A DNA stretch of 62,323 nucleotides from an archaeon (GTDB lineage: Archaea > Undinarchaeota > CAZHTU01 > JBDRCC01), in the NCBI GenBank assembly GCA_043822065.1, contig JBDRCC010000017.1, forward strand, positions 1-62,323, in the 5' to 3' direction. Both the position numbers and the translations under genes were made by a program. The notes beneath the pieces are model-generated. The model was given only the letters and a program-made list of their open reading frames with translations, was not told the origin of the DNA and made no database searches. Positions 13,245 to 62,323 of the stretch are shown here, one piece after another. How positions within the stretch are numbered: the first letter of the stretch is position 1; every line of letters starts with the position of its first letter.

Positions 13245-16200
13245 ATGGTTTCAGTTCGCAGGATGAGCATGAAGGGCTTCAAGTCCTTCGGCAGAAACAT
13301 TTGCATGGACTTTCCCCCAGGGTTCACCGCCATAGTCGGGCCTAACGGGAGCGGCAAGTCCAACGTAGTAGACGCCCTCTGTTTCGTCCTTGGCAGGATG
13401 AGCGTTAAGAGCCTTCGGGCGGACAGGCTCCACGAGCTTATTTTCAACGGCGGAACGGCAGGCAAGCCCGCCTCAAAAGCCAGCGTTTCAATAACATTCG
13501 ACAACACAGAGGGCGAGCTCCCCTTCCCTGAAAAGGAGGTCGAGGTCGTCAGGGAGATACTCAAGGACGGAAAGTCCGCCTACATAATCAACGGCACAAG
13601 GACGACCAGGACGCAGATAGTCGACGTCCTCTCAAAAATCCGGGTCAATCCGAACGGGCACAACATAATCCTCCAAGGGGACGTGGCCCGGGTAATCGAC
13701 ATGAACGCGGTCGAGCGCAGGGAGATAGTCGACGACGTCTCCGGGATAGGCGAGTACGAGGAGAAGAAGATAAAGGCGCTCAGGGAGCTTGAAAAGGTCC
13801 AGCAGAAGATTTCGGAGGCTGAAGCCGTCCACCGCGAGCGGAAGAAATACCTCACTGCAGTGGAGCGGGAAAAAGATGATGCGGAGCGGTACAAGGCCAC
13901 AACTGCGCGGCTAAAGCACTACCGCGGGGAGATATTCTCAATAAAGATTAAGAAGTCGAACAAGGAGCTCGGGTCCATGGGCGCCGAGTACCTGACGCAC
14001 GTCGAGTCGCAGGAGAAGATTTCCGAAAAGATAAACGCAAGGCAGGAGGAGGTCAATTCCCTCCAGGGCAAGATAAACGAGATTGACGAGTTCCTCTCAC
14101 GCCAGGGCGAGAGCAAGTATGCAAAGGAAATATCTGATGCTAAAGTTTCGATAAGCTCACTCTCTGAAAAGAGGAAGCTATTGGTCGAGTCTGCCGACAG
14201 TGCCGGCAAAGAGGTTAAGTCAATAGAAGACGAAATATCCGCAGTTGCCGAAGCGGAGAAGGAGTCAAAGGTGCTGATTGAAAAGCTCCGCAAGGAGCGG
14301 CTCGGCCTGGAAGGCAAACTGAACGCAAAGCGCTCTGAGCTCGCACAGCTGAGAAAAAAGGCAGGGCTGAAGCCCGGCGAGGACTCGGAAAAAGAAGAGA
14401 TTACTGCCAAGATAACGGAGCACAGGCTTAAGCTTGGCTCGGCGACCGGGAAGCACACCCACCTGAACGAAAACCTCAAGGCGCTGGCTTCTGAGCTGAA
14501 GTCCCTGCTCTCACAAGTTTCATTTCAGCCGCTTGAGGGCGAGACTACCCAACAGCGGGCAGCCAGGGCCGAAGCCGAATATGCGTCCCTTGGGAAAAGC
14601 CTCGTGTCAAAAAAGCGCGAGCTTGACTCGCTCAAGAAGCGGCTTGGGCTTGAGGAGGTTCCCTCTATTGCCGAGGAAGAGGTAAAAAAGCCGGCTGCCG
14701 ACGTCCTTGAGGAAATCAAGGCGGAGGTCGAGCGGCTGGACGCGCTTCTCTCGAAGGGCGCCGGCGAGCTCCAGGACGGCGCAGACATCTCTGCCCTGAA
14801 AAAGAGGGTTAAATCCTTCCTGTCCGACGTTTCGCGTTCAGTTTCGAGCATAAAGTCGAAAGTTGGAATCGTCAGCGATGAGGACAAGAGGCGAAAGGAG
14901 TCGCTTTTGCGGCTCGGTGCCCTCTCAGGGGAGGTTTCCGGGCTCCTGTCGCGCAGCAGCAGCATGGGTATAGACGCACAGGCACTTAAGAAGGCAGCCG
15001 CCATAGAGCCGCAGCTGCAGCAGCTGAAATCAGAGCTCGCGTCCATTGACTCGGAGGCGGCAGGGCACCGGCAGAAAATTTCCGAGCTTGAAGAGGCGAG
15101 GGACGCCATAGAGAAGGCTTCAAAGAGCGGGCTCGAGAAGCTCGAAGCAGCGTCATCTGAAGTTGAGCGGCTTGTCGAAGAAAAGAACGGGCTTGACGTT
15201 GAGCTTTCAGGCCTCATATCGAAATCAGAGGTCCTCTCCGGCGCAAAGCAGAAGGCAGGCAGGTCCCAGATAGAAAAGCTCCAGGCGAGGATTTCAGGCG
15301 CACAGGCAGACATCTCCTCCATAGACTCACAGGTGTCTGCCCTTGGGAAACGGCTGAAGGAGCTCGAAGCGAAAAGCAAGTCGGAAAGCCTGGAAACCAA
15401 GCTCGACGAGAAGAAGTCCCTCCTGTCAAAGATTGATGGCATAAGGCGCGACATCCAGGAGCTCTACCGCAAGACATCTGACGTTGAGCGCCACAAGAAC
15501 GACCTTAACGTCAGAAAGGCGACGGTCCAGACCCGCCTCCAGGATCTGACTGAGGAGTTCAAGAAATATGAAATACACGAAGTCGAGCCAAAGCACACCG
15601 AGCTCGAGCTCGAGCGCCTAATCCAGAAGAACGAGAAGGAGCTTGCCGAAATCGGCTCGGTCAACATGCTTGCCATTGAGGCGTACGAGGAGATAAAGAA
15701 GGACTACGACGAGCTCGTCTCCAAGATGAACAAACTAACTGAGGAAAAGGCGGCAGTCGAGAGCTTCATGCACGAGATTGAGGACAAGAAGCGCGAGGCA
15801 TTCATGGAAACGTTTCTCCAGCTCCTCGACAATTTTGAGACGCTCTATTCAAAACTCGACCCAGGGGGCGAGGCTCACCTTGTGCTTGAAAACCCGGACA
15901 ACCCGTTTGAGGCCGGGATGGACATGCAGGTCCGCCCGCGGGGCAAGGAGATGATAAATGTCAGCCTCCTCTCAGGCGGGGAAAAAACGCTGACTGCGCT
16001 TGCATTCATCTTTGCAATCCAGCAGTTCAGGCCTGCGCCGTTCTACATACTTGACGAAGTCGACGCCGCGCTTGACAAGGTCAACTCGGACATGCTCGGC
16101 AAGATGCTTGCGGAGTCGGCAAAGGGCGGGAATGCGCAGTTCATAGTAATAACGCACAACGACTCCGTCCTTGAAAAGGCCGACCGGCTTTACGGCGTCA

Positions 16201-16250
16201 GCATGACAGACTACGGCTCTCAGATTGTCGGCGTGGAAATGGGCGCTTAA
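13245..16250 (+). CDS. smc: chromosome segregation SMC ATPase (short; no recognisable hinge)
   Basis: GFKSF, Walker A GPNGSGKSN, Q-loop LQG, LSGGEKT signature, LDEVDAALD, ITH; long coiled coils. Confidence 0.93.
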   Translation: MVSVRRMSMKGFKSFGRNICMDFPPGFTAIVGPNGSGKSNVVDALCFVLGRMSVKSLRADRLHELIFNGGTAGKPASKASVSITFDNTEGELPFPEKEVEVVREILKDGKSAYIINGTRTTRTQIVDVLSKIRVNPNGHNIILQGDVARVIDMNAVERREIVDDVSGIGEYEEKKIKALRELEKVQQKISEAEAVHRERKKYLTAVEREKDDAERYKATTARLKHYRGEIFSIKIKKSNKELGSMGAEYLTHVESQEKISEKINARQEEVNSLQGKINEIDEFLSRQGESKYAKEISDAKVSISSLSEKRKLLVESADSAGKEVKSIEDEISAVAEAEKESKVLIEKLRKERLGLEGKLNAKRSELAQLRKKAGLKPGEDSEKEEITAKITEHRLKLGSATGKHTHLNENLKALASELKSLLSQVSFQPLEGETTQQRAARAEAEYASLGKSLVSKKRELDSLKKRLGLEEVPSIAEEEVKKPAADVLEEIKAEVERLDALLSKGAGELQDGADISALKKRVKSFLSDVSRSVSSIKSKVGIVSDEDKRRKESLLRLGALSGEVSGLLSRSSSMGIDAQALKKAAAIEPQLQQLKSELASIDSEAAGHRQKISELEEARDAIEKASKSGLEKLEAASSEVERLVEEKNGLDVELSGLISKSEVLSGAKQKAGRSQIEKLQARISGAQADISSIDSQVSALGKRLKELEAKSKSESLETKLDEKKSLLSKIDGIRRDIQELYRKTSDVERHKNDLNVRKATVQTRLQDLTEEFKKYEIHEVEPKHTELELERLIQKNEKELAEIGSVNMLAIEAYEEIKKDYDELVSKMNKLTEEKAAVESFMHEIEDKKREAFMETFLQLLDNFETLYSKLDPGGEAHLVLENPDNPFEAGMDMQVRPRGKEMINVSLLSGGEKTLTALAFIFAIQQFRPAPFYILDEVDAALDKVNSDMLGKMLAESAKGGNAQFIVITHNDSVLEKADRLYGVSMTDYGSQIVGVEMGA

Positions 16251-17482
16251 ACCGGCTCGATGGCAGGAATTGCCTCCGGGTGCTTCTTGAGGACTATTTC
16301 TAGCAGTATTGGAGTCATAAAGGTAGTAGCAAGCGCCATTAGCACGACTATCGAAAATATCGTCTCGTCAAAAAACCCTAGCCGCCTGCACAGGCTGGCA
16401 ACGACAAGCTCGACCTCGCCCCGTCCGTTCATCCCAATGCCGACAGTGAGAGCGTCTTTCCAGTCCCGTTTCATCGCCTTAACCGCAATCCCGCAGCCGG
16501 CAATTTTCCCAACCACCGCTATTGCCAGCACTAGGATAAAAAGGACCGGGGCTGTTGAGAGGACGCTTATGTTTACCAGGACGCCTACCCAGATGAAGAA
16601 GAGCGGGGTGAGCAAGCCAAGCGAAAGCGCCTCAAACTCCTCGTAAATCTGGTGCCCGACCACCTCTTTGTGGCGCAGGAGCGCGTATCGGATTATCATG
16701 CCGCCTAGGAACGTGCCGATTATCCCAGAAAGGCCTGAAATTCTGGAGAGTATCGCGAGCAGGAGAATGAATATTGTCACGAAAGAGAAGAACCCAGTCC
16801 TGCTGTTTTCGAAAGTGTCCACGAGCCTCGGAACTGCAACAACGCCCACTATGGTAAGGATGACAAAAAAGCCAACTATTTTGGCAACAAGAAGAAGGAA
16901 CCCCGAGAAAATTGAGCCGCCAATCGCCTCGCCTGCCTGGGCTACAGCTATCAGAAACGAAAGGGCAAAAAGCCCTATTATGTCGCTGAAGACGCCGGCT
17001 TCTAGAATCATCCTGCCTGCAAACTTTTCAAGCATGTTGAACTCGACGAGGATGTCCGCGCTTACCGCGACCGCAGTGACTGAAAGGCTTATCCCAAACA
17101 GGAGGGCTACAATGGGGTGCATGCCTATGGAGCTGGCTAGCCATGCGCCGAGGCAAAGAGGGATTATGATTCCTGCAATTGCAACCCCGATGGCGTGCTT
17201 GCCCAGCTGGATGAACTGCTTTAGGTTTATCCTGAAGCCGATAAGGAACATGAAAAAGAATATCCCCAGCTCGCCAAGCGTCTCAAGCAGCTGGTTGGGT
17301 GCGATTATGTTCATAATGGACGGGCCGAGCAGGACGCCGGCCATTATCTCGCCGAGTATCTTCGGCTGGTTTACCCTGGTCGCCATGTAGCCGAATATCT
17401 TCGCGACCATGAGAAGAAGGGTTATCATAACGATGGGGTCTGCGATTTCAATAGTCGCCGTCAATAGCCCTGTGGGTCCCAT
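16247..17482 (-). CDS. CPA2-family cation:proton antiporter (membrane domain)
   Basis: ~12 TM helices; GEIMAGVLLGP, PLFFIWVG, GMNGRGEV motifs. Confidence 0.88.
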   Translation of the reverse strand: MGPTGLLTATIEIADPIVMITLLLMVAKIFGYMATRVNQPKILGEIMAGVLLGPSIMNIIAPNQLLETLGELGIFFFMFLIGFRINLKQFIQLGKHAIGVAIAGIIIPLCLGAWLASSIGMHPIVALLFGISLSVTAVAVSADILVEFNMLEKFAGRMILEAGVFSDIIGLFALSFLIAVAQAGEAIGGSIFSGFLLLVAKIVGFFVILTIVGVVAVPRLVDTFENSRTGFFSFVTIFILLLAILSRISGLSGIIGTFLGGMIIRYALLRHKEVVGHQIYEEFEALSLGLLTPLFFIWVGVLVNISVLSTAPVLFILVLAIAVVGKIAGCGIAVKAMKRDWKDALTVGIGMNGRGEVELVVASLCRRLGFFDETIFSIVVLMALATTFMTPILLEIVLKKHPEAIPAIEPV

Positions 17483-17497
17483 ACCACCTATAACACG

Positions 17498-17518
17498 TAG
17501 TAATATTTAAAACCTATA
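17498..17518. repeat. copy of the scpA-type promoter motif; also the TATA box of the CPA2 gene on the minus strand
   Basis: tagtaatatttaaaacctata vs tagtaatgtttaaaacctata at 18623-18643 (20/21 identical) and tagcaagatttaaaacct at 20030-20047. Confidence 0.6.
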
Positions 17519-17571
17519 ATGGCCTACTGCATTGTTCTTGAAAATAGCAATTATCCCTCTTAGATATCTGA

Positions 17572-18534
17572 TCATGCCCCGCCAAACTGCAGATAGAACA
17601 TCGCAACAACGTAGAGGACATACATCAAAACCATCAGCGTTCCGTCCAACCTGCCAAACGCCCTTTTCACAGCTGCAGTGTAGAAGAAGAACATGTTTGC
17701 CACCACCGCAAAAAGGAGGGCGGCGATGAAGATGCTCAACTGCACGGTAATGGGGTTTATAGCCGATGCAACGCCGAGCACGAAAGTAAGGTTAATCATG
17801 TTTGCGCCGAGGGCGTCACCAAGCGCGATGCCATAATGCTTCCTTTTTATTGCCTGCAGGATAACTGACAGTTCCGGAAGCGACGTTCCGATAGCAATAA
17901 TGGTCGCGCCTATGAAGCTTTGGGAAAGTCCCGCAATCTCGGCAAGCTTAACCGCAGAATCGACGGCAAAATGCGAGCTAATAATAATCCCGACAATCCC
18001 TACGAAGAACCGCAGGAAGGCGGACAGCCCCTCCTGCTTGGTGACATGTGCCTCAGCCTTGCCGTTCTTAACTCCCTTCTTGGACAGTATGTGTGACACA
18101 TAAAACGCAGCAACGAGCAGCAGGACAGCCCCTTCTACAAAGCCCAACGCATTGCCGGCTATCTGGGAATGGTAGATGATGTAAACAGAAATAAGTGTCG
18201 TGATAAGCAGTACCAGCCCTACTTCGGGGAGCATGTCCCTACTCACCCGAAAGCCGTAGAGAAACGCACCGATGCCGAGGAGCAGGAGGAGGTTTGCAAT
18301 GTTAGACCCGAACACATTTCCTGCTGCAATCGCGCCCTGGTTGGTCACCGAGGCGGCAACCGAAACGGAGAGCTCCGGAAGCGTCGTTGCGGCGGCGACC
18401 AAGAGTATGCCTACTGCGAGCTGGCTCACGCCAAAAAACTGCGCCAGCTTTGTAGCATTTCTAACTACGACTTCGGCAGATTTAGATAATATACTGATGA
18501 AAATTACGAGGACGATAAGTTCGGCAAGCACCAT
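17572..18534 (-). CDS. CaCA-family Ca2+/Na+ antiporter (YrbG-like)
   Basis: Two alpha-repeats: ATTLPEL...GNVFGSNIAN and GTSLPEL...GDALGANMIN. Confidence 0.92.
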   Translation of the reverse strand: MVLAELIVLVIFISILSKSAEVVVRNATKLAQFFGVSQLAVGILLVAAATTLPELSVSVAASVTNQGAIAAGNVFGSNIANLLLLLGIGAFLYGFRVSRDMLPEVGLVLLITTLISVYIIYHSQIAGNALGFVEGAVLLLVAAFYVSHILSKKGVKNGKAEAHVTKQEGLSAFLRFFVGIVGIIISSHFAVDSAVKLAEIAGLSQSFIGATIIAIGTSLPELSVILQAIKRKHYGIALGDALGANMINLTFVLGVASAINPITVQLSIFIAALLFAVVANMFFFYTAAVKRAFGRLDGTLMVLMYVLYVVAMFYLQFGGA

Positions 18535-18662
18535 ACCTATCGTAGCACATATGCCAATAAATAGTTTATCTTCATCCGAAACGTTTGTTTTGCATTATCT
18601 ATGGGTGTGCCGCCAGTTGAGATAGTAATGTTTAAAACCTATACCGACATTGCATATTCAGG

Positions 18663-19006
18663 ATGGATGCAGAGCAGCTATACTCCTGAGGATGAAATCC
18701 GACTCGCTGATTCTTAGGGATACGGACCAGCTAATCCAAGAGTACATGGCGCGGTTTGCCGGCGACATAAGCGAGCTTGAGGAGGTCAACCGCGAGCTTG
18801 CCAACTTCCCGATACTCGAGCCGGTCATACTGCGCGCCCCGCAGAGCAAGGTCACTGTCGACGACCTTCTGGGCGCCCTCAGGAAAGTCCTGAATGAGAA
18901 GGAGCAGAAGGCAGTCCGCAGGCAGGAGATGGAATCCATGCCATTCAGGATAGAGCTTCCGGACTTTGACATAACAGAGGCAATAGCGGACATACTCACG
19001 CGGATA
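18663..19006 (+). pseudogene. scpA: scpA pseudogene: duplicated, internally deleted, frameshifted and 3'-truncated
   Basis: Starts with the same MDAEQLYS as scpA, then stops; lacks 181 bp between two GCTATACTC repeats; 18677-18933 matches 20265-20521 with 1 mismatch. Confidence 0.92.
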
Positions 19007-19131
19007 TTGAGACGGCAGACAGGCTGTACGGAGTAAGCATGACCGACTACGGTTCGCAGCTGGTCGGTGTGGAGATGGGTGGGCAGGCGCCGTCCGCTAA
19101 AGTATTAAAAATAGGTCCACATATCGATTAA
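19007..19131 (+). pseudogene. smc: fragment of a diverged smc 3' end
   Basis: Translates as ETADRLYGVSMTDYGSQLVGVEMG vs EKADRLYGVSMTDYGSQIVGVEMGA at the true smc end (16173-16250); differences mostly synonymous. Confidence 0.88.
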
Positions 19132-19190
19132 GAGAAGTAAGCCCTCTTAATCGCTGTTAGCAGACCGAGACGAAGTCGAGGCACGAAGTG
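19125..19190. repeat. hairpin cluster: 10-bp stem plus two cGAAg mini-hairpins
   Basis: cgattaagag (19125-34) / ctcttaatcg (19144-53); gacGAAgtc (19169-77) and cacGAAgtg (19182-90). Confidence 0.6.
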
Positions 19191-19232
19191 ACGAGAGTTT
19201 GGGGGTGAGTATTTATTTAGATTCGATGTAGC

Positions 19233-19904
19233 TTACTTGTAGCTTACCAGCTCCATAACCATCGCTGCTTCACCGCCGTATGAAACCTTTAATGGCAAAG
19301 GCACGTTATCAGCTATCCAGAAGTTTGCGCTTTCTGATTCATACTTCTTTGCGCTGAATGTTCCTGCAGGCACTGTCATAGACTCTTTGCCTATATACCT
19401 AAGTACAGGCGCTTCAGTTGCAGAAGCAGAGTTCGGGCCTTCTGTAGGGCACTGACCTTCTTGCTGGATAGTCTGGCCTGCTACATTCATCACAGTTGAT
19501 ATTTTTAGGCACGCCAATGATTCCTTGTCCAGCCACATCTTTGTTGTTATTACATTACCCTCTACACTCAGGTCAGACTGCTGCAGCCATGCTGCATTTC
19601 CATTAGCTGCATCTGAGCTAATCTTATACTTTATATCCATTACATTTTGCTGCCCGCCTGCATTTGAGATTATTTTGTATTCAAATTCGCTTAGCAGCCC
19701 ATAGTTATAGAGCATGTTCATCGTAAATTTTGAGGATTCCTGCTCTGACTGTGCTGTTGTCGTGTCCTGCGAAGCCAGTGCCTGCTGTTGCTCCTGCTGC
19801 GGAGCCTGGGCCTGCTGCTGTACACAGCCGCTGATAAACAGAATGCCGACCAATAAAATCAGAAATGAAAGATAACTCACCTTTTTTGTATGCATTTTAA
19901 CCAT
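19233..19904 (-). CDS. lipoprotein with Gln-rich linker and beta-rich (DUF3108-like) domain
   Basis: Basic N-terminus, hydrophobic core, ISGC lipobox; ESMTVPAGTF...WIA motif; AT-richer than neighbours. Confidence 0.75.
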   Translation of the reverse strand: MVKMHTKKVSYLSFLILLVGILFISGCVQQQAQAPQQEQQQALASQDTTTAQSEQESSKFTMNMLYNYGLLSEFEYKIISNAGGQQNVMDIKYKISSDAANGNAAWLQQSDLSVEGNVITTKMWLDKESLACLKISTVMNVAGQTIQQEGQCPTEGPNSASATEAPVLRYIGKESMTVPAGTFSAKKYESESANFWIADNVPLPLKVSYGGEAAMVMELVSYK

Positions 19905-20069
19905 ATGCTTTTATTATACCTTCTATAGGTATATAAATGTTTTTGATTTCTACTTCGTTTGAAGTGCGCCAGCCAAATTATTATGATTCGGCGCTCCAGC
20001 TGATAAAAATCAGGCGGGCGGCTGAGCAGTAGCAAGATTTAAAACCTCCAGCGACATTCTTTTTTCAGG

Positions 20070-20798
20070 ATGGATGCAGAGCAGCTATACTCGATGATAG
20101 AGACCAGGGACTCCTGGGAAGTCTTTATCATTGACACTGTCCGCTCGGAGAAGATGAACCCCTGGGACATAGACCTTGTCCGGCTGGCAGAGAAATGCCT
20201 CGAGCGCATACGGGGCATGAAGCAGTTCGACTTCAGGGTCCCTGCGAAGGTGGTTCTTTCTGCCGCTATACTCCTGAGGATGAAATCCGACTCGCTGATT
20301 CTTAGGGATACGGACCAGCTAATCCAAGAGTACATGGCGCGGTTTGCCGGCGACATAAGCGAGCTTGAGGAGGTCAACCGCGAGCTTGCCAATTTCCCGA
20401 TACTCGAGCCGGTCATACTGCGCGCCCCGCAGAGCAAGGTCACTGTCGACGACCTTCTGGGCGCCCTCAGGAAAGTCCTGAATGAGAAGGAGCAGAAGGC
20501 AGTCCGCAGGCAGGAGATGGAGGCATTGCCCTACCATCTGGAGCTTTCGGAGTTCGATATAACCGAGGCAATAGACACGATACTAACCCGCATAAAGATG
20601 GCGCTTCGCGAATCGCCGTTCATTACATTTTTCGGCCTTCTTAAGAAGCGCGACCGGACTGAGATCTCGCAGACCATACTGCCAGTCCTCCACCTCGCAA
20701 ACGAGCGGAAAATCGTCCTCCGGCAGGAGAGGCAGTTCGGCCCGATTGAGATTTATTTCCCCGAGAACGCTCCTACTGAAATCGAAGCAGAGGCATAA
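20070..20798 (+). CDS. scpA: segregation and condensation protein A (kleisin)
   Basis: MNPWDIDLVRL, AAILLRMKS, LPVLHLANERKIVLRQERQFGPI. Confidence 0.93.
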   Translation: MDAEQLYSMIETRDSWEVFIIDTVRSEKMNPWDIDLVRLAEKCLERIRGMKQFDFRVPAKVVLSAAILLRMKSDSLILRDTDQLIQEYMARFAGDISELEEVNRELANFPILEPVILRAPQSKVTVDDLLGALRKVLNEKEQKAVRRQEMEALPYHLELSEFDITEAIDTILTRIKMALRESPFITFFGLLKKRDRTEISQTILPVLHLANERKIVLRQERQFGPIEIYFPENAPTEIEAEA

Positions 20799-21283
20799 TG
20801 GATTCAAAGAAGCTAGTTGAGGCTGCATTATTCATCTCCGGGAGGGAGATGCGCAAGGGTGAGCTGGCAGAGATGCTGAAGATGACGCTCGACGAGGTCG
20901 ACAGGCATGCCACTGCGCTTGTCGATGACTATGCCGGCAGGGACTCCTGCGTCAAGATTATCAAGTTTGAGGGCACGTACAAGATGGACATCGACCAGGA
21001 GTACGGCACCCATGTCAAGAAGCTCGCTCCCGAGGTCGAGCTCTCCCGCGGCGTCCTGAAGGCGCTGTCGTTTATCGCCTACAAGCAGCCGGTCCGCCAG
21101 AGCCAGCTTGTCAAGCTCCTGGGAAACCGCGCCTATGAGTACGTCCACGAGCTGGTCGACCGCGGTTTCGTAACCGCCGAGCGGTGGGGCAGGACAAGAA
21201 AGCTCCAGACCACCGACAAGTTCCGGATGTACTTCGGCACAAGCGGAATCACTGACCCGGAGCCCAAGCCGCAGGAACAATGA
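20798..21283 (+). CDS. scpB: segregation and condensation protein B
   Basis: VEAALFISG, LSFIAYKQPV, TTDKFRMYFG; TAATG overlap with scpA. Confidence 0.93.
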   Translation: MDSKKLVEAALFISGREMRKGELAEMLKMTLDEVDRHATALVDDYAGRDSCVKIIKFEGTYKMDIDQEYGTHVKKLAPEVELSRGVLKALSFIAYKQPVRQSQLVKLLGNRAYEYVHELVDRGFVTAERWGRTRKLQTTDKFRMYFGTSGITDPEPKPQEQ

Positions 21284-44179: not shown

Positions 44180-45415
44180 TCAAATCTCGTCTTCTTCAAG
44201 GGCTTTCTCGCGTATCAGGAAGGAGGTTACTGGGGCAGAGGTTATTATCTTCGTGGCTACGGTGGAGGAAATCACTGACACGAGCACAAAGACAAACACA
44301 ATCACAACAATGAATTCCGCATTTGCAATGCTGGCTGCGACCACTAGGGGCGCGGTTGCCGCCGCAGCTATTCCCCTCGGGCCTATGAAGCTGGCAAGCA
44401 GCTTGTCTTTTACCGGTATGTCCTCTTCTGATTTCCAATAGGTCAGGAAAACTGCAAGGGGCCTTGCGCCGAGAATCCCAAGGAACGTAAACAGGAGTAT
44501 CCTAAACCAGGAGACGCTAAGGCCAGCGGCGGGCGCCAGGTTGATGCTTGCGCCGAGAAGCATGAATACAGACAATCGGAGCATCACTGAAAACGCATCG
44601 TCAAAGCGCTGGACGTCCTTCTTGCCAGGGAATGCTATGTTCCCTGCGATGAGGCCGCAGACTGCAACTGCGAGTATGCCTGAGCCGCCAACATTCTCGC
44701 CGAGGGCGTAGGTTATGAGGGCTATTGAAAACGCCAGGAGCGGGGAAAGGTCGCGGTCTGCCTTGTTCAGGAGCTTGCCAGCGGCGAACCCGACCACGAC
44801 GCCGGTGCCTACGCCGGCAGCAATCATAAGCCAAAACTTGTTGAGGTAAAGCATGGACAGGTCAACGCCAGAGACTACCGCATCGCCTTTTGATAAAAAG
44901 TCGAATATTATGAGCGGGATAAGGACGGATATTGGCGAATTCATTATTGACTCGACCATAAGAAGGTTGCTTGTTTTTTCGTGGTCGGAAAGCAAATCCT
45001 TGAAGGTCACAACGACGTCCGTGGACGTGCCGCTTATTATCGCCGCAAGTAGTATCGCGCCCAGGGCTGACAAGCCAAGGACAAGAATTCCAAGAGCCGA
45101 GAACAGGGCTATGGCTACGGCAACTGCGATTATTGTGAGCCTGAACGCGCTGTCAGATACCTGCTTGAACACGCGCATTTGCATGTTGAACGAGCCTGCA
45201 AATACGATTATTATCAGTGCTAAGCTCCTCAAAAAATCTGGCACGGTGCCCATGAGCCCAACGTCTATGACTCCGAGGACGGTTGGCCCCATCGCAAGCC
45301 CTGCGAGAAGGAGGAGAAACGAGTCCGGAATCCTGAACTTGCGCAGGCTGTTTGCGATTATCACGCCGAACCCTAATAGGAACGCAAAATAGGTCACGAT
45401 AAGCGTGGTAGACAT
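44180..45415 (-). CDS. CPA1-family (NhaP-like) cation:proton antiporter
   Basis: ~13 TM helices, GGSGILAV, ARPLAV, GPRGIAAA; start revised to ATG 45415. Confidence 0.87.
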   Translation of the reverse strand: MSTTLIVTYFAFLLGFGVIIANSLRKFRIPDSFLLLLAGLAMGPTVLGVIDVGLMGTVPDFLRSLALIIIVFAGSFNMQMRVFKQVSDSAFRLTIIAVAVAIALFSALGILVLGLSALGAILLAAIISGTSTDVVVTFKDLLSDHEKTSNLLMVESIMNSPISVLIPLIIFDFLSKGDAVVSGVDLSMLYLNKFWLMIAAGVGTGVVVGFAAGKLLNKADRDLSPLLAFSIALITYALGENVGGSGILAVAVCGLIAGNIAFPGKKDVQRFDDAFSVMLRLSVFMLLGASINLAPAAGLSVSWFRILLFTFLGILGARPLAVFLTYWKSEEDIPVKDKLLASFIGPRGIAAAATAPLVVAASIANAEFIVVIVFVFVLVSVISSTVATKIITSAPVTSFLIREKALEEDEI

Positions 45416-45469
45416 AGCACGGATAATCGCCTTAAGATTTAAATAGTTTATAGTCCTATTCAATTTAGG

Positions 45470-45760
45470 ATGGAATTCAGGATTGGAAAGCTTAGGCTTA
45501 ACATTGTTGAGAACAGCCCTGGCAGTCTCGCAATTGAGTATGAGATAGACGCCCACCGCACCCAGGAGAGCCTGCCGTCGCAGGAGATGATTGAGTGTGT
45601 TGACGACCTCAGGGCAGGCCTGCGGAAATTCGAGGACCAGAGGCGGCGCCAGGAGGAGGCAAAAGCGATGTTTGACTCGCACACGGTGTCAAAGCTTCAG
45701 TCTCTAGGCATACGGGATTTCGCATACCTCACAAGGGGCATAAAAGAGGACAACGAGTAG
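45470..45760 (+). CDS. hypothetical protein
   Basis: 96-aa ORF divergent from the antiporter across an AT-rich gap; core-like codon usage. Confidence 0.65.
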   Translation: MEFRIGKLRLNIVENSPGSLAIEYEIDAHRTQESLPSQEMIECVDDLRAGLRKFEDQRRRQEEAKAMFDSHTVSKLQSLGIRDFAYLTRGIKEDNE

Positions 45761-46384: not shown

Positions 46385-47986
46385 TTATGCGCCTAGCTTC
46401 TTGAGAAGCTTGTCAATCTTCTTCCTTTTCACGCCCTCGAACTTGTAAAGCTCTTTCTTTGGAAGCTTCTCAGCGGCTTTTAAATCCTCGAGGTATTTAT
46501 AACCTTCTTTTGCCTTTTTCTCCTTCTTCAGCCGAGCGTCTATTTTGTCCAGCACTTTTTTGTCCTCAGTTGGGTGCGGATAAAACGCATACGGCCATAT
46601 CCTCAGGTAATCCTGATACAAGTACGTAAACGCGTGGAACGGGAGCAGCAGTATGTTTATTACCAAGTAGATGAAAAGCGCGTTCGAAAGGGACGCGCTG
46701 TAAGCGAAGGATGCCCTTAAAAGCAGGAGCTGGATGAACATGTACGCGAAAAAGATGTAGCTCCGCTTTATTATGACGTTGAATGTCCAGAAGAGCTTCA
46801 CAGTCCCCCAACAGACGTTCCTCCAGAAGTGGATATAGTTGCTTACGCCCATGAGGTTATAGAATACCTTCTCAAAAATTTGGTAGGGCCATTTGCGGAA
46901 GTAGCACTGGATGTAGTGGAAACGGTAGGCTTCCCCGTCAACCGCGCTGACAAGGCCGCTCGCCCATTCAGTATCCAGGTGCACGTTCTTGACTATCGGC
47001 CGGTTAAAGTAGAGTATCTTCCAGAATGGGATATACATCAGCTCCCTGCCAGTGATTATGATGTCCTCCGGCGGCACGTTAAACCAGCTTGCAACGTACC
47101 TCTGGCCAATCAGCTTCGATTCATGCTTCTCAAGCGAGGGCTTGTAGACTGAAAAGAGCACGTTTTTGGGGAGCCACTTCGGCTTGAATATTTTGCCCAT
47201 TTTCGCGCGGAAGTCCTTGTACGTGCGGTGAATGGCCTCGTGGCTAAGCACATAATTAAGGCCATTGACTGCGATTGCGTCCTGTGGCGAAGTAAACAGA
47301 TTAAAGTATACATCCCCATCCCAGGCGCTCACTCCAAAAAAGCCTTGGTGCGAGCCTATGTACGTCGTCTTCCGCTCCGGCTTTTTAGCAACCTGGTAAG
47401 TGAACTTCCAGAAGGGCATATACACGAACTCTAGTGTCGCGATGTACATGCATGCCCAGTTATAATGCATGAGCTTCTCAAAGTAATACTTGAAGTAGTA
47501 CAGGGCCTGTTCGTAGGTTATCCGCGGCTCGTATGCGGGATACCCCTGCCACCAGGGCTGCTCGATTGACGCCTTGCCGATAAGCTGCTCGAGTTTCTCC
47601 GGCGTGACGATCTGGATGTGGGTGTTTGTCGCGGCGACCTGGGCATCTTTGGTGAAGCCGGTGTTCGTCAGGTACATGCCGTAGAACGCTTCTGCATGCT
47701 GCATTATTTTTGACATCTGGTAAACGTCGGTGTCGGTCAGCTGGTCTGCCTTGCGGTTAATCATCACCAGGATCCTGCCGAAAGGCCGTTCAATGTCGCG
47801 CTTTTCTGCGAATATGTCCGTCCGGTAAGTTATCTGGTGCTTGCCAGTCTCTGGGATATACGTCGGCTCCTGGCCCATCTCAAGGGTGGTCATCCCACCC
47901 TCGACAATGCCGACATTCCTCTGGACGTCGTAGCCGTAGATGTTAAGCATCTCTTCTGCAATGTCAAGCATTTGGTATATGTCCAT
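46385..47986 (-). CDS. membrane protein with degenerate Mrr-like restriction-endonuclease fold (paralogue B)
   Basis: YGYDVQR...DIFAEK...YLTNTGFTKDAQVAA...IQIV pattern; two E.xY.P(F/Y)W domains; 2 C-terminal TM helices. Confidence 0.7.
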   Translation of the reverse strand: MDIYQMLDIAEEMLNIYGYDVQRNVGIVEGGMTTLEMGQEPTYIPETGKHQITYRTDIFAEKRDIERPFGRILVMINRKADQLTDTDVYQMSKIMQHAEAFYGMYLTNTGFTKDAQVAATNTHIQIVTPEKLEQLIGKASIEQPWWQGYPAYEPRITYEQALYYFKYYFEKLMHYNWACMYIATLEFVYMPFWKFTYQVAKKPERKTTYIGSHQGFFGVSAWDGDVYFNLFTSPQDAIAVNGLNYVLSHEAIHRTYKDFRAKMGKIFKPKWLPKNVLFSVYKPSLEKHESKLIGQRYVASWFNVPPEDIIITGRELMYIPFWKILYFNRPIVKNVHLDTEWASGLVSAVDGEAYRFHYIQCYFRKWPYQIFEKVFYNLMGVSNYIHFWRNVCWGTVKLFWTFNVIIKRSYIFFAYMFIQLLLLRASFAYSASLSNALFIYLVINILLLPFHAFTYLYQDYLRIWPYAFYPHPTEDKKVLDKIDARLKKEKKAKEGYKYLEDLKAAEKLPKKELYKFEGVKRKKIDKLLKKLGA

Positions 47987-60696: not shown

Positions 60697-62322
60697 TTAT
60701 CCTCCCATAAGTCCTACCTTGAGCATTATCAGTATCGCTGCCAGCAAGCCGAGTATTGCAAATGTCTCTGGCATAACTGCGAGTATCAAGCTCTTGCCGA
60801 ATGACTCAGGCCGCCGGGACATGGACATGATTCCTGACGCCGCAACAATTCCCTGCCCGATTGCTGACAGCCCGGCAAAGCCGACAACGAGCCCGGCGCC
60901 GACTGCAGCTATGCCAGCTGACAGCGGAAGCTCGGTTACTGTGCCGCTGAGTATTCCAGTGAAATAAAGCAGCATTATCGCCACCAGGAGGCCGTAGATT
61001 GCCTGGGTCTCGGGAAGAACCGAAAATACCATAGACTTGCCGAAGAGGGACGGATCACTTGAGGTCGCGCCAGCGCCAGCCGCCGTAGCAATTCCTTGGC
61101 CTATGGCTGAGAGGCCAGCAATTCCAACGGCAAGCCCGGCGCCGACTGCGGCGAGCGCGGCTGCGCCAGTTACCTGGTTGAACGTTCCGCCAAGAATTCC
61201 TGTAAAGAAGAGTATAAGTATTGCGACAAGGAGGCCGTATATCGCCTGCGTCTCCGGAAGTACGGAGAATACCATCGACTTGCCGAACATGTTCTGCTTT
61301 TCTGCAGTGGCCGCGGCGCCGGATGCCGCAGCGATTCCCTGCCCCACTGCAGAGGAGCCAGCAAAACCAATTGCCATACCCGCGCCTACTGCGGCAATCC
61401 CTATGACTAGGGGCATGTCTGGAATGAACTTCCCGCCAATCAGGCCTGTGAAGAACATTATCAGTATGGCGATTAGGAGGCCATAGATTGCCTGGGTCTC
61501 GGGGAGGACTGAGAAAATCATGCTCTTGCCGAAGAGGGATGGCTTTTCAGAGGTAACGCCTATGCCAGCTGCTGCGGCAATGCCTTGGCCTATTGCAGAT
61601 ATTCCTGCAAAGCCAACTGCGATTCCAGCGCCTACTGCGGCAAGCCCGGCAGCTGCAGGTATTGCTTTTATTCCGCCGCCAAGTATTCCTGTGAAAAAGA
61701 GTATTAAAATTGCAACCAAAAGCCCGTATATCGCCTGGGTTTCTGGGAGGACTGAGAATACCATCGACTTGCCGAACATCTGCGGCTTATTCGCAGTCGC
61801 GCCCGCGCCCGCCGCCGCCGCGATTCCCTGCCCGATTGCCGACAGCCCTGCAAACCCAATTGCCATGCCCGCGCCTATTGCGGCGATTCCAACAGGTATT
61901 GGCATATCCGGGATATAACTGCTCCCGATTATGCCGGTGAAGAACATTATCAGTATGGCGATTAGGAGGCCATAGATTGCCTGGGTCTCGGGGAGGACTG
62001 AGAAAATCATGCTCTTGCCGAAGAGGGATGGCTTTTCAGAGGTAACTGCTATCCCCGACGACGCAACTATTCCCTGCCCTATTGCGGACAGCCCTGCAAT
62101 CCCAACAGCTATGCCTGCACCAACCGCAGCCAATCCGGCAGCTGTTGGCAGAGCGGAAACGCCGCCGCCGATAATTCCTGTAAAGAAAAGTATCAAGATG
62201 GCGACAAGCAGCCCGTATATGGCTTGAGTCTCTGGCAGTACGGAGAAGACCATTGATTTGCCGAACATATGGGGTTTGTCCGCAGTGGCTGCTGCGCCTG
62301 CTGCCGCCGCAATGCCCTGCCC
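60697..62322 (-). CDS. atpK: A-type ATP synthase subunit K/c with at least 7 fused hairpins (5' end outside the window)
   Basis: Six PETQAIYGLL plus a terminal PETFAILGLL, each preceded by GQG; the frame stays open to the window edge (GQGIAAAAGAAATADKPH). Confidence 0.95.
   Translation of the reverse strand, partial: GQGIAAAAGAAATADKPHMFGKSMVFSVLPETQAIYGLLVAILILFFTGIIGGGVSALPTAAGLAAVGAGIAVGIAGLSAIGQGIVASSGIAVTSEKPSLFGKSMIFSVLPETQAIYGLLIAILIMFFTGIIGSSYIPDMPIPVGIAAIGAGMAIGFAGLSAIGQGIAAAAGAGATANKPQMFGKSMVFSVLPETQAIYGLLVAILILFFTGILGGGIKAIPAAAGLAAVGAGIAVGFAGISAIGQGIAAAAGIGVTSEKPSLFGKSMIFSVLPETQAIYGLLIAILIMFFTGLIGGKFIPDMPLVIGIAAVGAGMAIGFAGSSAVGQGIAAASGAAATAEKQNMFGKSMVFSVLPETQAIYGLLVAILILFFTGILGGTFNQVTGAAALAAVGAGLAVGIAGLSAIGQGIATAAGAGATSSDPSLFGKSMVFSVLPETQAIYGLLVAIMLLYFTGILSGTVTELPLSAGIAAVGAGLVVGFAGLSAIGQGIVAASGIMSMSRRPESFGKSLILAVMPETFAILGLLAAILIMLKVGLMGG
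61448..62046. repeat. perfect 110-bp direct repeat (61448-61557 and 61937-62046), period 489 bp
   Basis: Read directly from the sequence; a 26-bp identity at 61265 and 61754 has the same 489-bp offset. Confidence 0.9.
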
Positions 62323-62323
62323 T

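Follow-up and report, generated by a model that had tools for sequence, protein, structure and literature searches.

The 62,323-nt contig JBDRCC010000017.1 (assembly GCA_043822065.1), analysed here at its full length and referred to below as the window, comes from a metagenome-type assembly of an uncultured lineage of Undinarchaeota. Between its smc and scpA genes lies a scar in which the first part of a second scpA copy (scpA') is fused to the 3' end of a diverged smc allele (smc'). The gene order is smc (forward), a CPA2-type antiporter gene (reverse), a CaCA-type antiporter gene (reverse), scpA'-smc' (forward), a lipoprotein gene (reverse), scpA (forward) and scpB (forward), and the three cargo genes between smc and scpA thus all share one orientation (Table 1). 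This order had been given in a preliminary description of the window and agrees with our open reading frame (ORF) calls and with matches to Pfam and NCBIfam domains. On balance, we favour the view that the scar resulted from a single recent event, in which additive homologous recombination brought in a gene from a closely related, unsampled lineage.

Structure of the scpA'/smc' scar

The upstream region and the body of scpA' can be aligned with those of the working scpA gene further to the right, and the identity between the two copies passes from diverged to identical and back to diverged with sharp edges. From 18623 to 18685 the left copy is 84% identical overall to 20030-20092. The outer part of this region (18623-18656 versus 20030-20063) has 10 mismatches in 34 nt (71% identity), whereas the last 29 nt (18657-18685 versus 20064-20092), which include the ATG, are identical. 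At this point 181 nt have been deleted from scpA'. The deletion lies between two copies of GCTATACTC, found at 20084-20092 and 20265-20273 in scpA, and the 9-nt copy at the deletion junction occupies 18677-18685 in scpA'. As the deletion frameshifts the left copy, the reading frame of scpA' stops after 8 codons, which the preliminary description had overlooked. Beyond the deletion, 18677-18933 differs from 20265-20521 at a single position in 257 nt (18805 versus 20393), and this difference is synonymous. After 18933 the similarity falls abruptly: with 24 mismatches, 18934-19006 agrees with 20522-20594 at only 49/73 nt (67%), and 16 of the 25 residues are the same. The block from 18934 to 20062 is therefore flanked by direct repeats (29 + 257 nt) that hold one mismatch between them.

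The junction between scpA' and smc' could be mapped to the base, at 19006|19007. Here position 525 of scpA meets the point in smc that lies 80 nt short of the gene's end, which forms a novel head-to-tail junction with both parts in the same orientation. The resident counterpart of smc' is the final 80 nt of smc (16171-16250); 19007-19079 matches 16171-16243 at 59/73 nt, and beyond this smc' runs on for 16 codons to a stop of its own (19129-19131). Both of the short diverged matches, the scpA' tail and smc', have scores that were reached by none of 500 dinucleotide shuffles. A whole-window repeat scan identified the scpA pair as the sole convincing dispersed duplication. Two other families with two dispersed copies each, one of 47 nt (72%) and one of 35 nt (71%), were treated as chance, and the remaining repeat families are tandem repeats within genes. 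The unit that had been described as tandemly repeated, running from the smc end through cargo to the scpA start, is indeed present twice, with no further occurrence. An ORF of 128 amino acids with a TTG start (18650-19036) runs through what remains of scpA' and, out of frame, into smc'. This ORF is a by-product of the scar, a pseudogene chimera that annotation would call a hypothetical protein or an ScpA fragment.

Origin of the diverged pieces

Between smc' and the resident smc, 14 of the 69 codon-aligned nt differ, but only 2 of the 23 residues do. Thirteen of the 23 codons differ and 11 of these differences are synonymous, while the two residue changes (K to T and I to L) are conservative. 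With about 12 differences at roughly 17 synonymous sites, the divergence is near saturation. We simulated decay in place, in which the fragment lost its function when it split from a constrained smc, under three transition biases with 3000 runs each. Two or fewer residue changes were obtained in 0, 0 and 1 of 3000 simulations, with a mean of about 8, and we reject smc' as a duplicate that decayed where it now lies. This means that smc' belonged to a working smc for nearly the whole of the divergence and became a fragment only recently. When the fragment was left unconstrained for 25% of the branch, two or fewer residue changes were seen in 106 of 2000 simulations. The peptide YGVSMTDYGSQ occurs in smc' and in the window's own Smc, and in none of the C-termini of the 27 best Smc relatives compared. 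The source should therefore be a close relative, nearer than anything sampled.

The scpA' tail is free of stops and keeps five of the six invariant or nearly invariant columns of the family (P160, I164, A167, I168 and I175), with D in place of the invariant E161. The resident ScpA has S at P160, so that the P of its ELP is lost, whereas this residue is retained in the scpA' tail. The ESMPFRIELPDF tail is what would be expected of a donor's scpA. These comparisons support the interpretation, made from sequence, that the diverged pieces are alleles imported from a close, unsampled relative rather than decayed duplicates. An import had been proposed before on the basis of the divergence itself, and the predominance of synonymous changes in smc' and the decay simulations now bear it out.

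The lipoprotein gene within the putative imported block

The lipoprotein gene has the lowest GC content at third codon positions (GC3) of 54 contig genes (0.469, z = -2.42), whereas the CPA2 and CaCA genes are compositionally typical (z = +0.08 and -0.33). By composition, the lipoprotein gene thus appears to be imported cargo, while CPA2 and CaCA look native. The earlier suggestion that the cargo came from relatives is supported for the lipoprotein gene and not for the two antiporter genes. Homologues of the lipoprotein share 64-69% identity in a metagenome-assembled genome (MAG) labelled Nanoarchaeota, 55% in Uhrbacteria of the candidate phyla radiation (CPR) and 44% in Woesearchaeota. As these values lie far above the 30-38% identity of ScpA for such groups, the lipoprotein gene is a widely exchanged accessory gene.

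All 25 invariant columns of the lipoprotein family are kept, and C27 is invariant in 24 sequences. The family combines the Cys27 lipobox with two more invariant cysteines and has members in DPANN archaea and CPR bacteria. The predicted structure is an open beta-barrel (mean pLDDT 81.7), and a fold search of the PDB returned open barrels of the LolA/LprG/RseB/VioE type at TM 0.28-0.42, which gives no family assignment. The best PDB matches (LolA, LprG and RseB) bind lipids or lipoproteins, and a lipid-binding role for the modelled protein is only a lead. In the ESM Atlas the best feature score was 0.93, to unnamed clusters, with DUF3108 as a weak lead only. Searches of plasmid and phage collections returned no match to 18934-20069, and none of the 55 ORFs scanned across the 62 kb contains an integrase or transposase domain, as had been noted before.

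Proposed course of the import

The resident locus would have started as smc, CPA2 and CaCA (both on the reverse strand and each with a copy of a 21-nt motif on its scpA side), scpA and scpB, while in the donor the lipoprotein gene would have stood between smc and scpA. The donor piece would have started ~125 nt before the end of the donor's smc and stopped about 525 nt into its scpA, with the lipoprotein gene and the scpA promoter in between. It may have entered in circular form or 'ends-in', with its scpA end joined to its smc end, which would correspond to the 19006|19007 junction. It would then have recombined with the resident scpA in an insertion-type event that adds the donor piece and duplicates the shared homology. 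Gap repair from the resident chromosome, or later gene conversion, would have equalised the scpA copies from 7 nt before the ATG to scpA position 452, whereas the outer flanks (promoter 71%, scpA tail 67%, smc end 81%) would have stayed diverged. Later or simultaneously, the 181-nt deletion between 9-nt repeats would have frameshifted the left copy, leaving the right-hand scpA alone functional and now behind a donor-type promoter. The imported block would comprise 18934-20062 and take in the scpA tail and smc end of the donor, a hairpin element, the lipoprotein gene and the donor's promoter, a polarity suggested by the clues given below. A head-to-tail junction of scpA with smc is the expected result of either a tandem duplication or an insertion-type integration, and the identity pattern with its sharp edges is consistent with the ends-in entry of a donor fragment that was circularised or circularly permuted, its gap in scpA being filled from the resident chromosome. 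A single crossover followed by gene conversion fits equally well. The sequence itself shows the anatomy and break points of the scar, the foreign, once functional origin of smc', the foreign composition of the lipoprotein gene and the absence of recombinase genes, whereas the assignment of donor and resident sides, the circular or ends-in intermediate and the choice of gap repair over later conversion are inferred.

That the right-hand block is the foreign one is suggested by the low GC3 of the lipoprotein gene and by the upstream motifs, since the motif of scpA' (PL) matches the copy in the native-looking left part (P3) at 20/21 positions and that of scpA (PR) at 17/21. Judging from one mismatch in 286 nt and an intact cargo gene, the gain appears to be recent. 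Excision by a crossover within the 257-nt repeat would leave only the broken scpA, so the 181-nt deletion should, by this logic, stabilise the gain by making excision costly. Homology-anchored recombination had been put forward for this locus before, and it is the simplest mechanism.

Promoter-like motif and hairpin element

The 21-nt motif has three copies. P3 is 20/21 identical to the copy at 18623-18643 in PL, and the copy at 20030-20050 in PR agrees with that in PL at 17/21. The motif has two matches in the window at three or fewer mismatches, against 0.00 expected from 100 shuffles. The TATA-like box of the motif lies at the typical distance from a start, as 21 of the 38 TATA-like matches on the contig are 26-35 nt upstream of starts; CPA2 has its box at -30/-29, and the lipoprotein gene has its own box at -33. 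By their position, P3 and PR are putative promoters, P3 of CPA2 (on the opposite strand) and PR of scpA. What had been taken for a third copy of the promoter is merely the 21-nt motif. The CaCA gene is bracketed by direct 21-nt repeats (17498-17518 and 18623-18643, 20/21). A scan for sigma-70 promoters and intrinsic terminators was set aside, as its bacterial consensus is uninformative for an archaeon.

Downstream of smc', a conserved non-coding element of ~76 nt (19125-19200) is shared with a locus (L035, 11085-11165) of a GC-poor Woesearchaeota MAG, at 32/36 nt (E = 4e-6). Its exact 21-nt core is GACCGAGACGAAGTCGAGGCA, followed by GAGAGTTT. Only two matches to the element occur in 1.2 Mb, those in the window and in L035. 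The hairpin is retained between the two through two compensatory pair changes, and in both genomes an upstream ORF ends within the 5' arm of the hairpin. In L035 about 400 nt separate scpA from the element downstream of it, and a hicB-hicA pair comes directly after the element. The two copies of the element have no ORF in common on either strand. An Rfam search of 18900-20100 found no family; its sole sub-threshold match, snoU82P (15 bits against a gathering threshold of 42, E = 0.52), was treated as chance. Hairpins had been reported here previously. The 10-bp hairpin at 19125-19153 is present, but the spacer 19075-19235 folds no better than shuffles (z = 0.01).

The smc-scpA interval in relatives

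The nearest genome match for ScpA, ScpB and Smc is a MAG labelled Candidatus Undinarchaeota (L001; 60, 62 and 44% identity, respectively), and the remaining genome matches are all DPANN archaea, at 30-38% identity. In the protein collection the closest ScpA sequences share 77, 66 and 63% identity, and the nearer ScpA relatives in the family alignment (P0001-P0008) share 59-77%. The host thus belongs to a thinly sampled DPANN lineage.

We compared the smc-scpA interval across 80 fetched loci, one of which (L001) is moderately close by its ScpA. Among the 55 loci that have more than 4 kb upstream of scpA, smc lies upstream in four, with gaps of 10, 13, 678 and 2831 nt. The gap of 678 nt is that of L001 and contains a same-strand metallo-beta-lactamase-fold gene. 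The gaps of 10 and 13 nt, with smc abutting scpA, belong to two distant DPANN genomes, and in one other the 2831-nt gap holds a glycosyltransferase gene and further ORFs. In L001 (7427-8119), smc, the metallo-beta-lactamase-fold gene, scpA and scpB are arranged head to tail, and the stop of one gene overlaps or abuts the start of the next. This run looks like a single operon, whereas the scpA of the window has its own TATA-like box. The 80 loci yielded no homologue of CPA2, CaCA or the lipoprotein gene. For Euryarchaeota, smc is reported to neighbour scpA in 433 of 469 species (PMC7055376), which makes the filled gap the derived state.

We also looked for remnants of smc or scpA in the spacers around CaCA (17483-17497, 17519-17571 and 18535-18622). 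Each spacer was set against scpA, the end of smc, the left unit, the spacer that follows smc' and the stretch upstream of the lipoprotein gene. None was found. All 15 comparisons fell within the range of shuffles, with at least 20 of 300 shuffles scoring as well, and they revealed no second scar around CaCA.

The preliminary description had proposed that the interval is an accumulation hotspot, in which repeated capture builds a gene array, and had suggested that related genomes be compared for variable cargo. The content of the interval does differ in L001 and in the three distant genomes. However, these differences are variation across phyla over very long spans and show no turnover within a clade. 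With a single scar, compositionally native CPA2 and CaCA genes and one moderately close genome for comparison, an array-building hotspot exceeds the evidence.

Alternative explanations

The features of the scar could also have arisen in other ways. An old tandem duplication within the genome, whose two units lost different cargo and drifted apart while gene conversion re-homogenised part of scpA', would give a scpA'|smc' junction of exactly the type seen, and the conversion step it needs is required under every model anyway. We regard this history as quite unlikely, as smc' shows constraint at the protein level (11 of 13 differing codons synonymous) that the decay simulations reproduced in 0, 0 and 1 of 3000 runs, and a dead fragment old enough for near-saturated synonymous sites should be scrambled. 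Moreover, the lipoprotein gene is a compositional outlier where CPA2 and CaCA are not, and neither unit retains remnants of the cargo it would have lost. It is also unlikely, to a lesser degree, that the contig joins two related populations, or a chromosome and a small circle, threaded through the 257-nt repeat. In favour of this, the window spans a full contig from an uncultured lineage, and the repeat, at 99.6% identity, exceeds typical assembly k-mers; threaded the other way, it would give a 1,588-bp circle and a chromosome that carries only the deleted scpA. Such an arrangement needs a chromosome with a broken scpA next to a replicon that has no replication gene. In addition, the scpA'|smc' and 181-nt deletion junctions share no long k-mer elsewhere (the repeat at the deletion is 9 nt). 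As graph assemblers are unlikely to invent junctions without a shared k-mer, a scar-bearing molecule should exist either way, and the difference between 18805 and 20393 means that the repeat copies were assembled separately.

It is very improbable that the 21-nt motif or the ~76-nt hairpin element is the site of a recombinase encoded elsewhere that built an integron-like array. The three motif copies do delimit two units, with 20/21 identity in the closest pair, the cargo genes all point in the same direction, and the hairpin element beside the cargo recurs by a hicBA pair in a very distant DPANN genome. Against this, the motif resembles a TATA-type promoter and lies where such boxes usually do (-26 to -35), the cargo genes have TATA-like boxes of their own, the hairpin element has only two copies in 1.2 Mb, and the 55 ORFs include no integrase or transposase. 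The unit also holds pieces of scpA and smc, which are explained by homology and not expected of a cassette. We give equally little weight to the wider proposal that the smc-scpA gap is a true capture site, in which the motif, perhaps with the hairpin element, is the recombination site and each capture brings reverse-strand cargo and renews the scpA promoter without a local integrase.

Several points count against additive import from a close relative, which we nevertheless prefer. No donor came up when 18934-19131 and 18934-20069 were searched by blastn against the 80 loci, where the only matches were the L035 element and the end of the L001 smc (74-76%). The search for a donor lineage with 18934-19131 that had been suggested earlier thus matched a distant smc end and a shared element, and not the donor itself. 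The rest of the window gave nothing in the same search besides chance matches of 15-24 nt. A second, paralogous smc-scpA locus of the same genome could have supplied the diverged pieces, and the path of the contig through the 257-nt repeat could be mis-threaded. The clues to polarity, the GC3 of one gene and a 21-nt motif, suggest rather than fix the direction of transfer. A plain reciprocal single crossover leaves the copies non-identical, so that gap repair, heteroduplex repair or conversion is needed, and scoring microhomology at 19006|19007 needs the donor alleles. Finally, the import model does not account for the origin of the 21-nt repeats around CaCA.

Feature coordinates and neighbouring genes

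The features of the region are listed in Table 1. For the CPA2 gene, which is convergent with smc and overlaps it by 4 nt, the top NCBIfam match is TIGR00932 (CPA2 subfamily, E = 4.7e-46), and for the CaCA gene it is TIGR00367 (calcium/sodium antiporter, E = 4e-48). Both matches are under the curated cut-off.

Table 1. Features of the smc-scpB region in the window (positions in nt from the first letter of the contig).
Feature	Position	Strand	Description
smc	13245-16250	+	Intact, 1001 aa; SMC_N E = 6.1e-70; TIGR02169 E = 7.6e-182
CPA2-type Na+/H+ (cation:proton) antiporter gene	16247-17482	-	Na_H_Exchanger E = 4.8e-58
P3, 21-nt motif	17498-17518		Palindromic TATA-like TTTAAA core; about 30 nt upstream of the CPA2 start
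CaCA-type Ca2+/Na+ antiporter gene	17572-18534	-	Na_Ca_ex E = 2.6e-50, 2 stretches
PL, scpA' upstream region	18623-18662	+	Motif at 18623-18643
scpA' pseudogene	18663-19006	+	ATG at 18663; stop at 18687-18689 after 8 codons
smc'	19007-19131	+	3' end of a diverged smc allele; 73 alignable nt, 81% identity
Conserved non-coding element	19125-19200	+	~76 nt; 10-bp hairpin 19125-19153, 21-nt core 19163-19183, GAGAGTTT 19193-19200
Lipoprotein gene	19233-19904	-	Intact; signal peptide, Cys27 lipobox; no Pfam family at E <= 0.001
PR, scpA upstream region	20030-20069	+	Motif copy at 20030-20050 (17/21 identical to PL); TATA-like box at -32/-31
scpA	20070-20798	+	Intact, 242 aa; SMC_ScpA E = 1.2e-9; conserved family columns present
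scpB	20798-21283	+	Intact, overlaps the scpA stop; SMC_ScpB E = 5.5e-33; TIGR00281 92 bits, above cut-off

The rest of the contig contains archaeal housekeeping genes, including those for aminoacyl-tRNA synthetases, SRP54/FtsY, TFIIB, ribosomal proteins and A-type ATPase subunits. The 1001-aa Smc has no SMC hinge: its middle 271 residues (14382-15194) give no SMC_hinge match even at E <= 10, and only weak matches of coiled-coil type. The corresponding part of the L001 Smc matches SMC_hinge at 1.8e-34. In the two closest Smc relatives (851 and 838 aa) the precomputed hinge domain is likewise absent, and there may be a small clade of hinge-less Smc proteins, here together with intact ScpA and ScpB. 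The ATP synthase c/K-subunit gene at 60697-62323 contains 6-7 tandem repeats of 243/246 nt and runs off the end of the contig; its product has six ATP-synt_C stretches in 523 aa. A second Na_H_Exchanger gene (44180-45682) lies near the gene of a 533-aa protein with an Mrr_cat restriction-endonuclease domain (46385-47986).

Comparison with known systems and significance

Ends-in recombination has been described as giving a tandem duplication of the donor's homology (PMC4216337). The window resembles the product of such insertion-type (ends-in, Campbell-type) integration in gene targeting, in which the shared homology is directly duplicated on either side of the added DNA, a junction of the tandem-duplication type is formed and gap repair from the chromosome equalises the copies over the gap. 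Here, too, we found a head-to-tail junction, direct-repeat flanks and a block from another genome, as seen in the divergence of smc' and in the GC3-outlier cargo. Unlike gene targeting, this is a natural product in an uncultured archaeon, with a donor about 20-30% diverged and an intermediate that we infer, and one of the repeats was later disabled by the 181-nt deletion.

In bacteria, gene gain through recombination at flanking core genes is established and explains hotspots without mobile-element genes (PMC5635113). Like the hotspots described there, the window has accessory genes between two core genes, no integrase or transposase, and recombination tracts in the flanking core genes, in this case one tract in scpA and a fragment of an smc allele. 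In that account, however, a double crossover replaces the interval without a scar, whereas the gain in the window is additive and leaves a chimeric pseudogene. Hotspot status in that work is statistical, over many genomes of a clade and for bacteria only, as opposed to the one moderately close genome available here.

Arrays of orphan immunity genes at Vibrio type VI secretion system (T6SS)/Rhs loci, with displaced 3' gene ends, have been ascribed to homology-facilitated illegitimate recombination (Kirchberger et al. 2017, PMC5361080). As described there, modules join by a homologous anchor and an illegitimate join, older genes are pushed aside and fragments remain as scars, a pattern that the window may share. 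It is plausible that scpA provided the homologous anchor that such recombination would need. The Vibrio arrays are long toxin-immunity arrays that result from repeated events and displacement, whereas the window shows one event and a duplication at a housekeeping locus with no toxin-immunity logic. The usual outcome of homology-facilitated illegitimate recombination is an insertion-deletion, again unlike the duplication found here. The locus also recalls integron cassette arrays in that cargo of the same orientation is separated by a short repeated motif, with a hairpin element beside one cargo gene. Unlike integrons, it has no integrase (0/55 ORFs), its motif is promoter-like, its cargo genes carry their own TATA-like boxes and its unit contains pieces of core genes.

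The locus is thus a natural archaeal example of a known insertion-type outcome, and establishes no new mechanism or hotspot. It shows the additive, scar-leaving outcome of recombination, as opposed to the replacing, scarless double crossover. DPANN archaea have small genomes. If the contig is correct, it provides direct evidence, resolved to the base, that a DPANN archaeon gained a gene from a close relative through housekeeping homologous recombination, with the break points, the fragments of the donor alleles and the later stabilising deletion all still readable.

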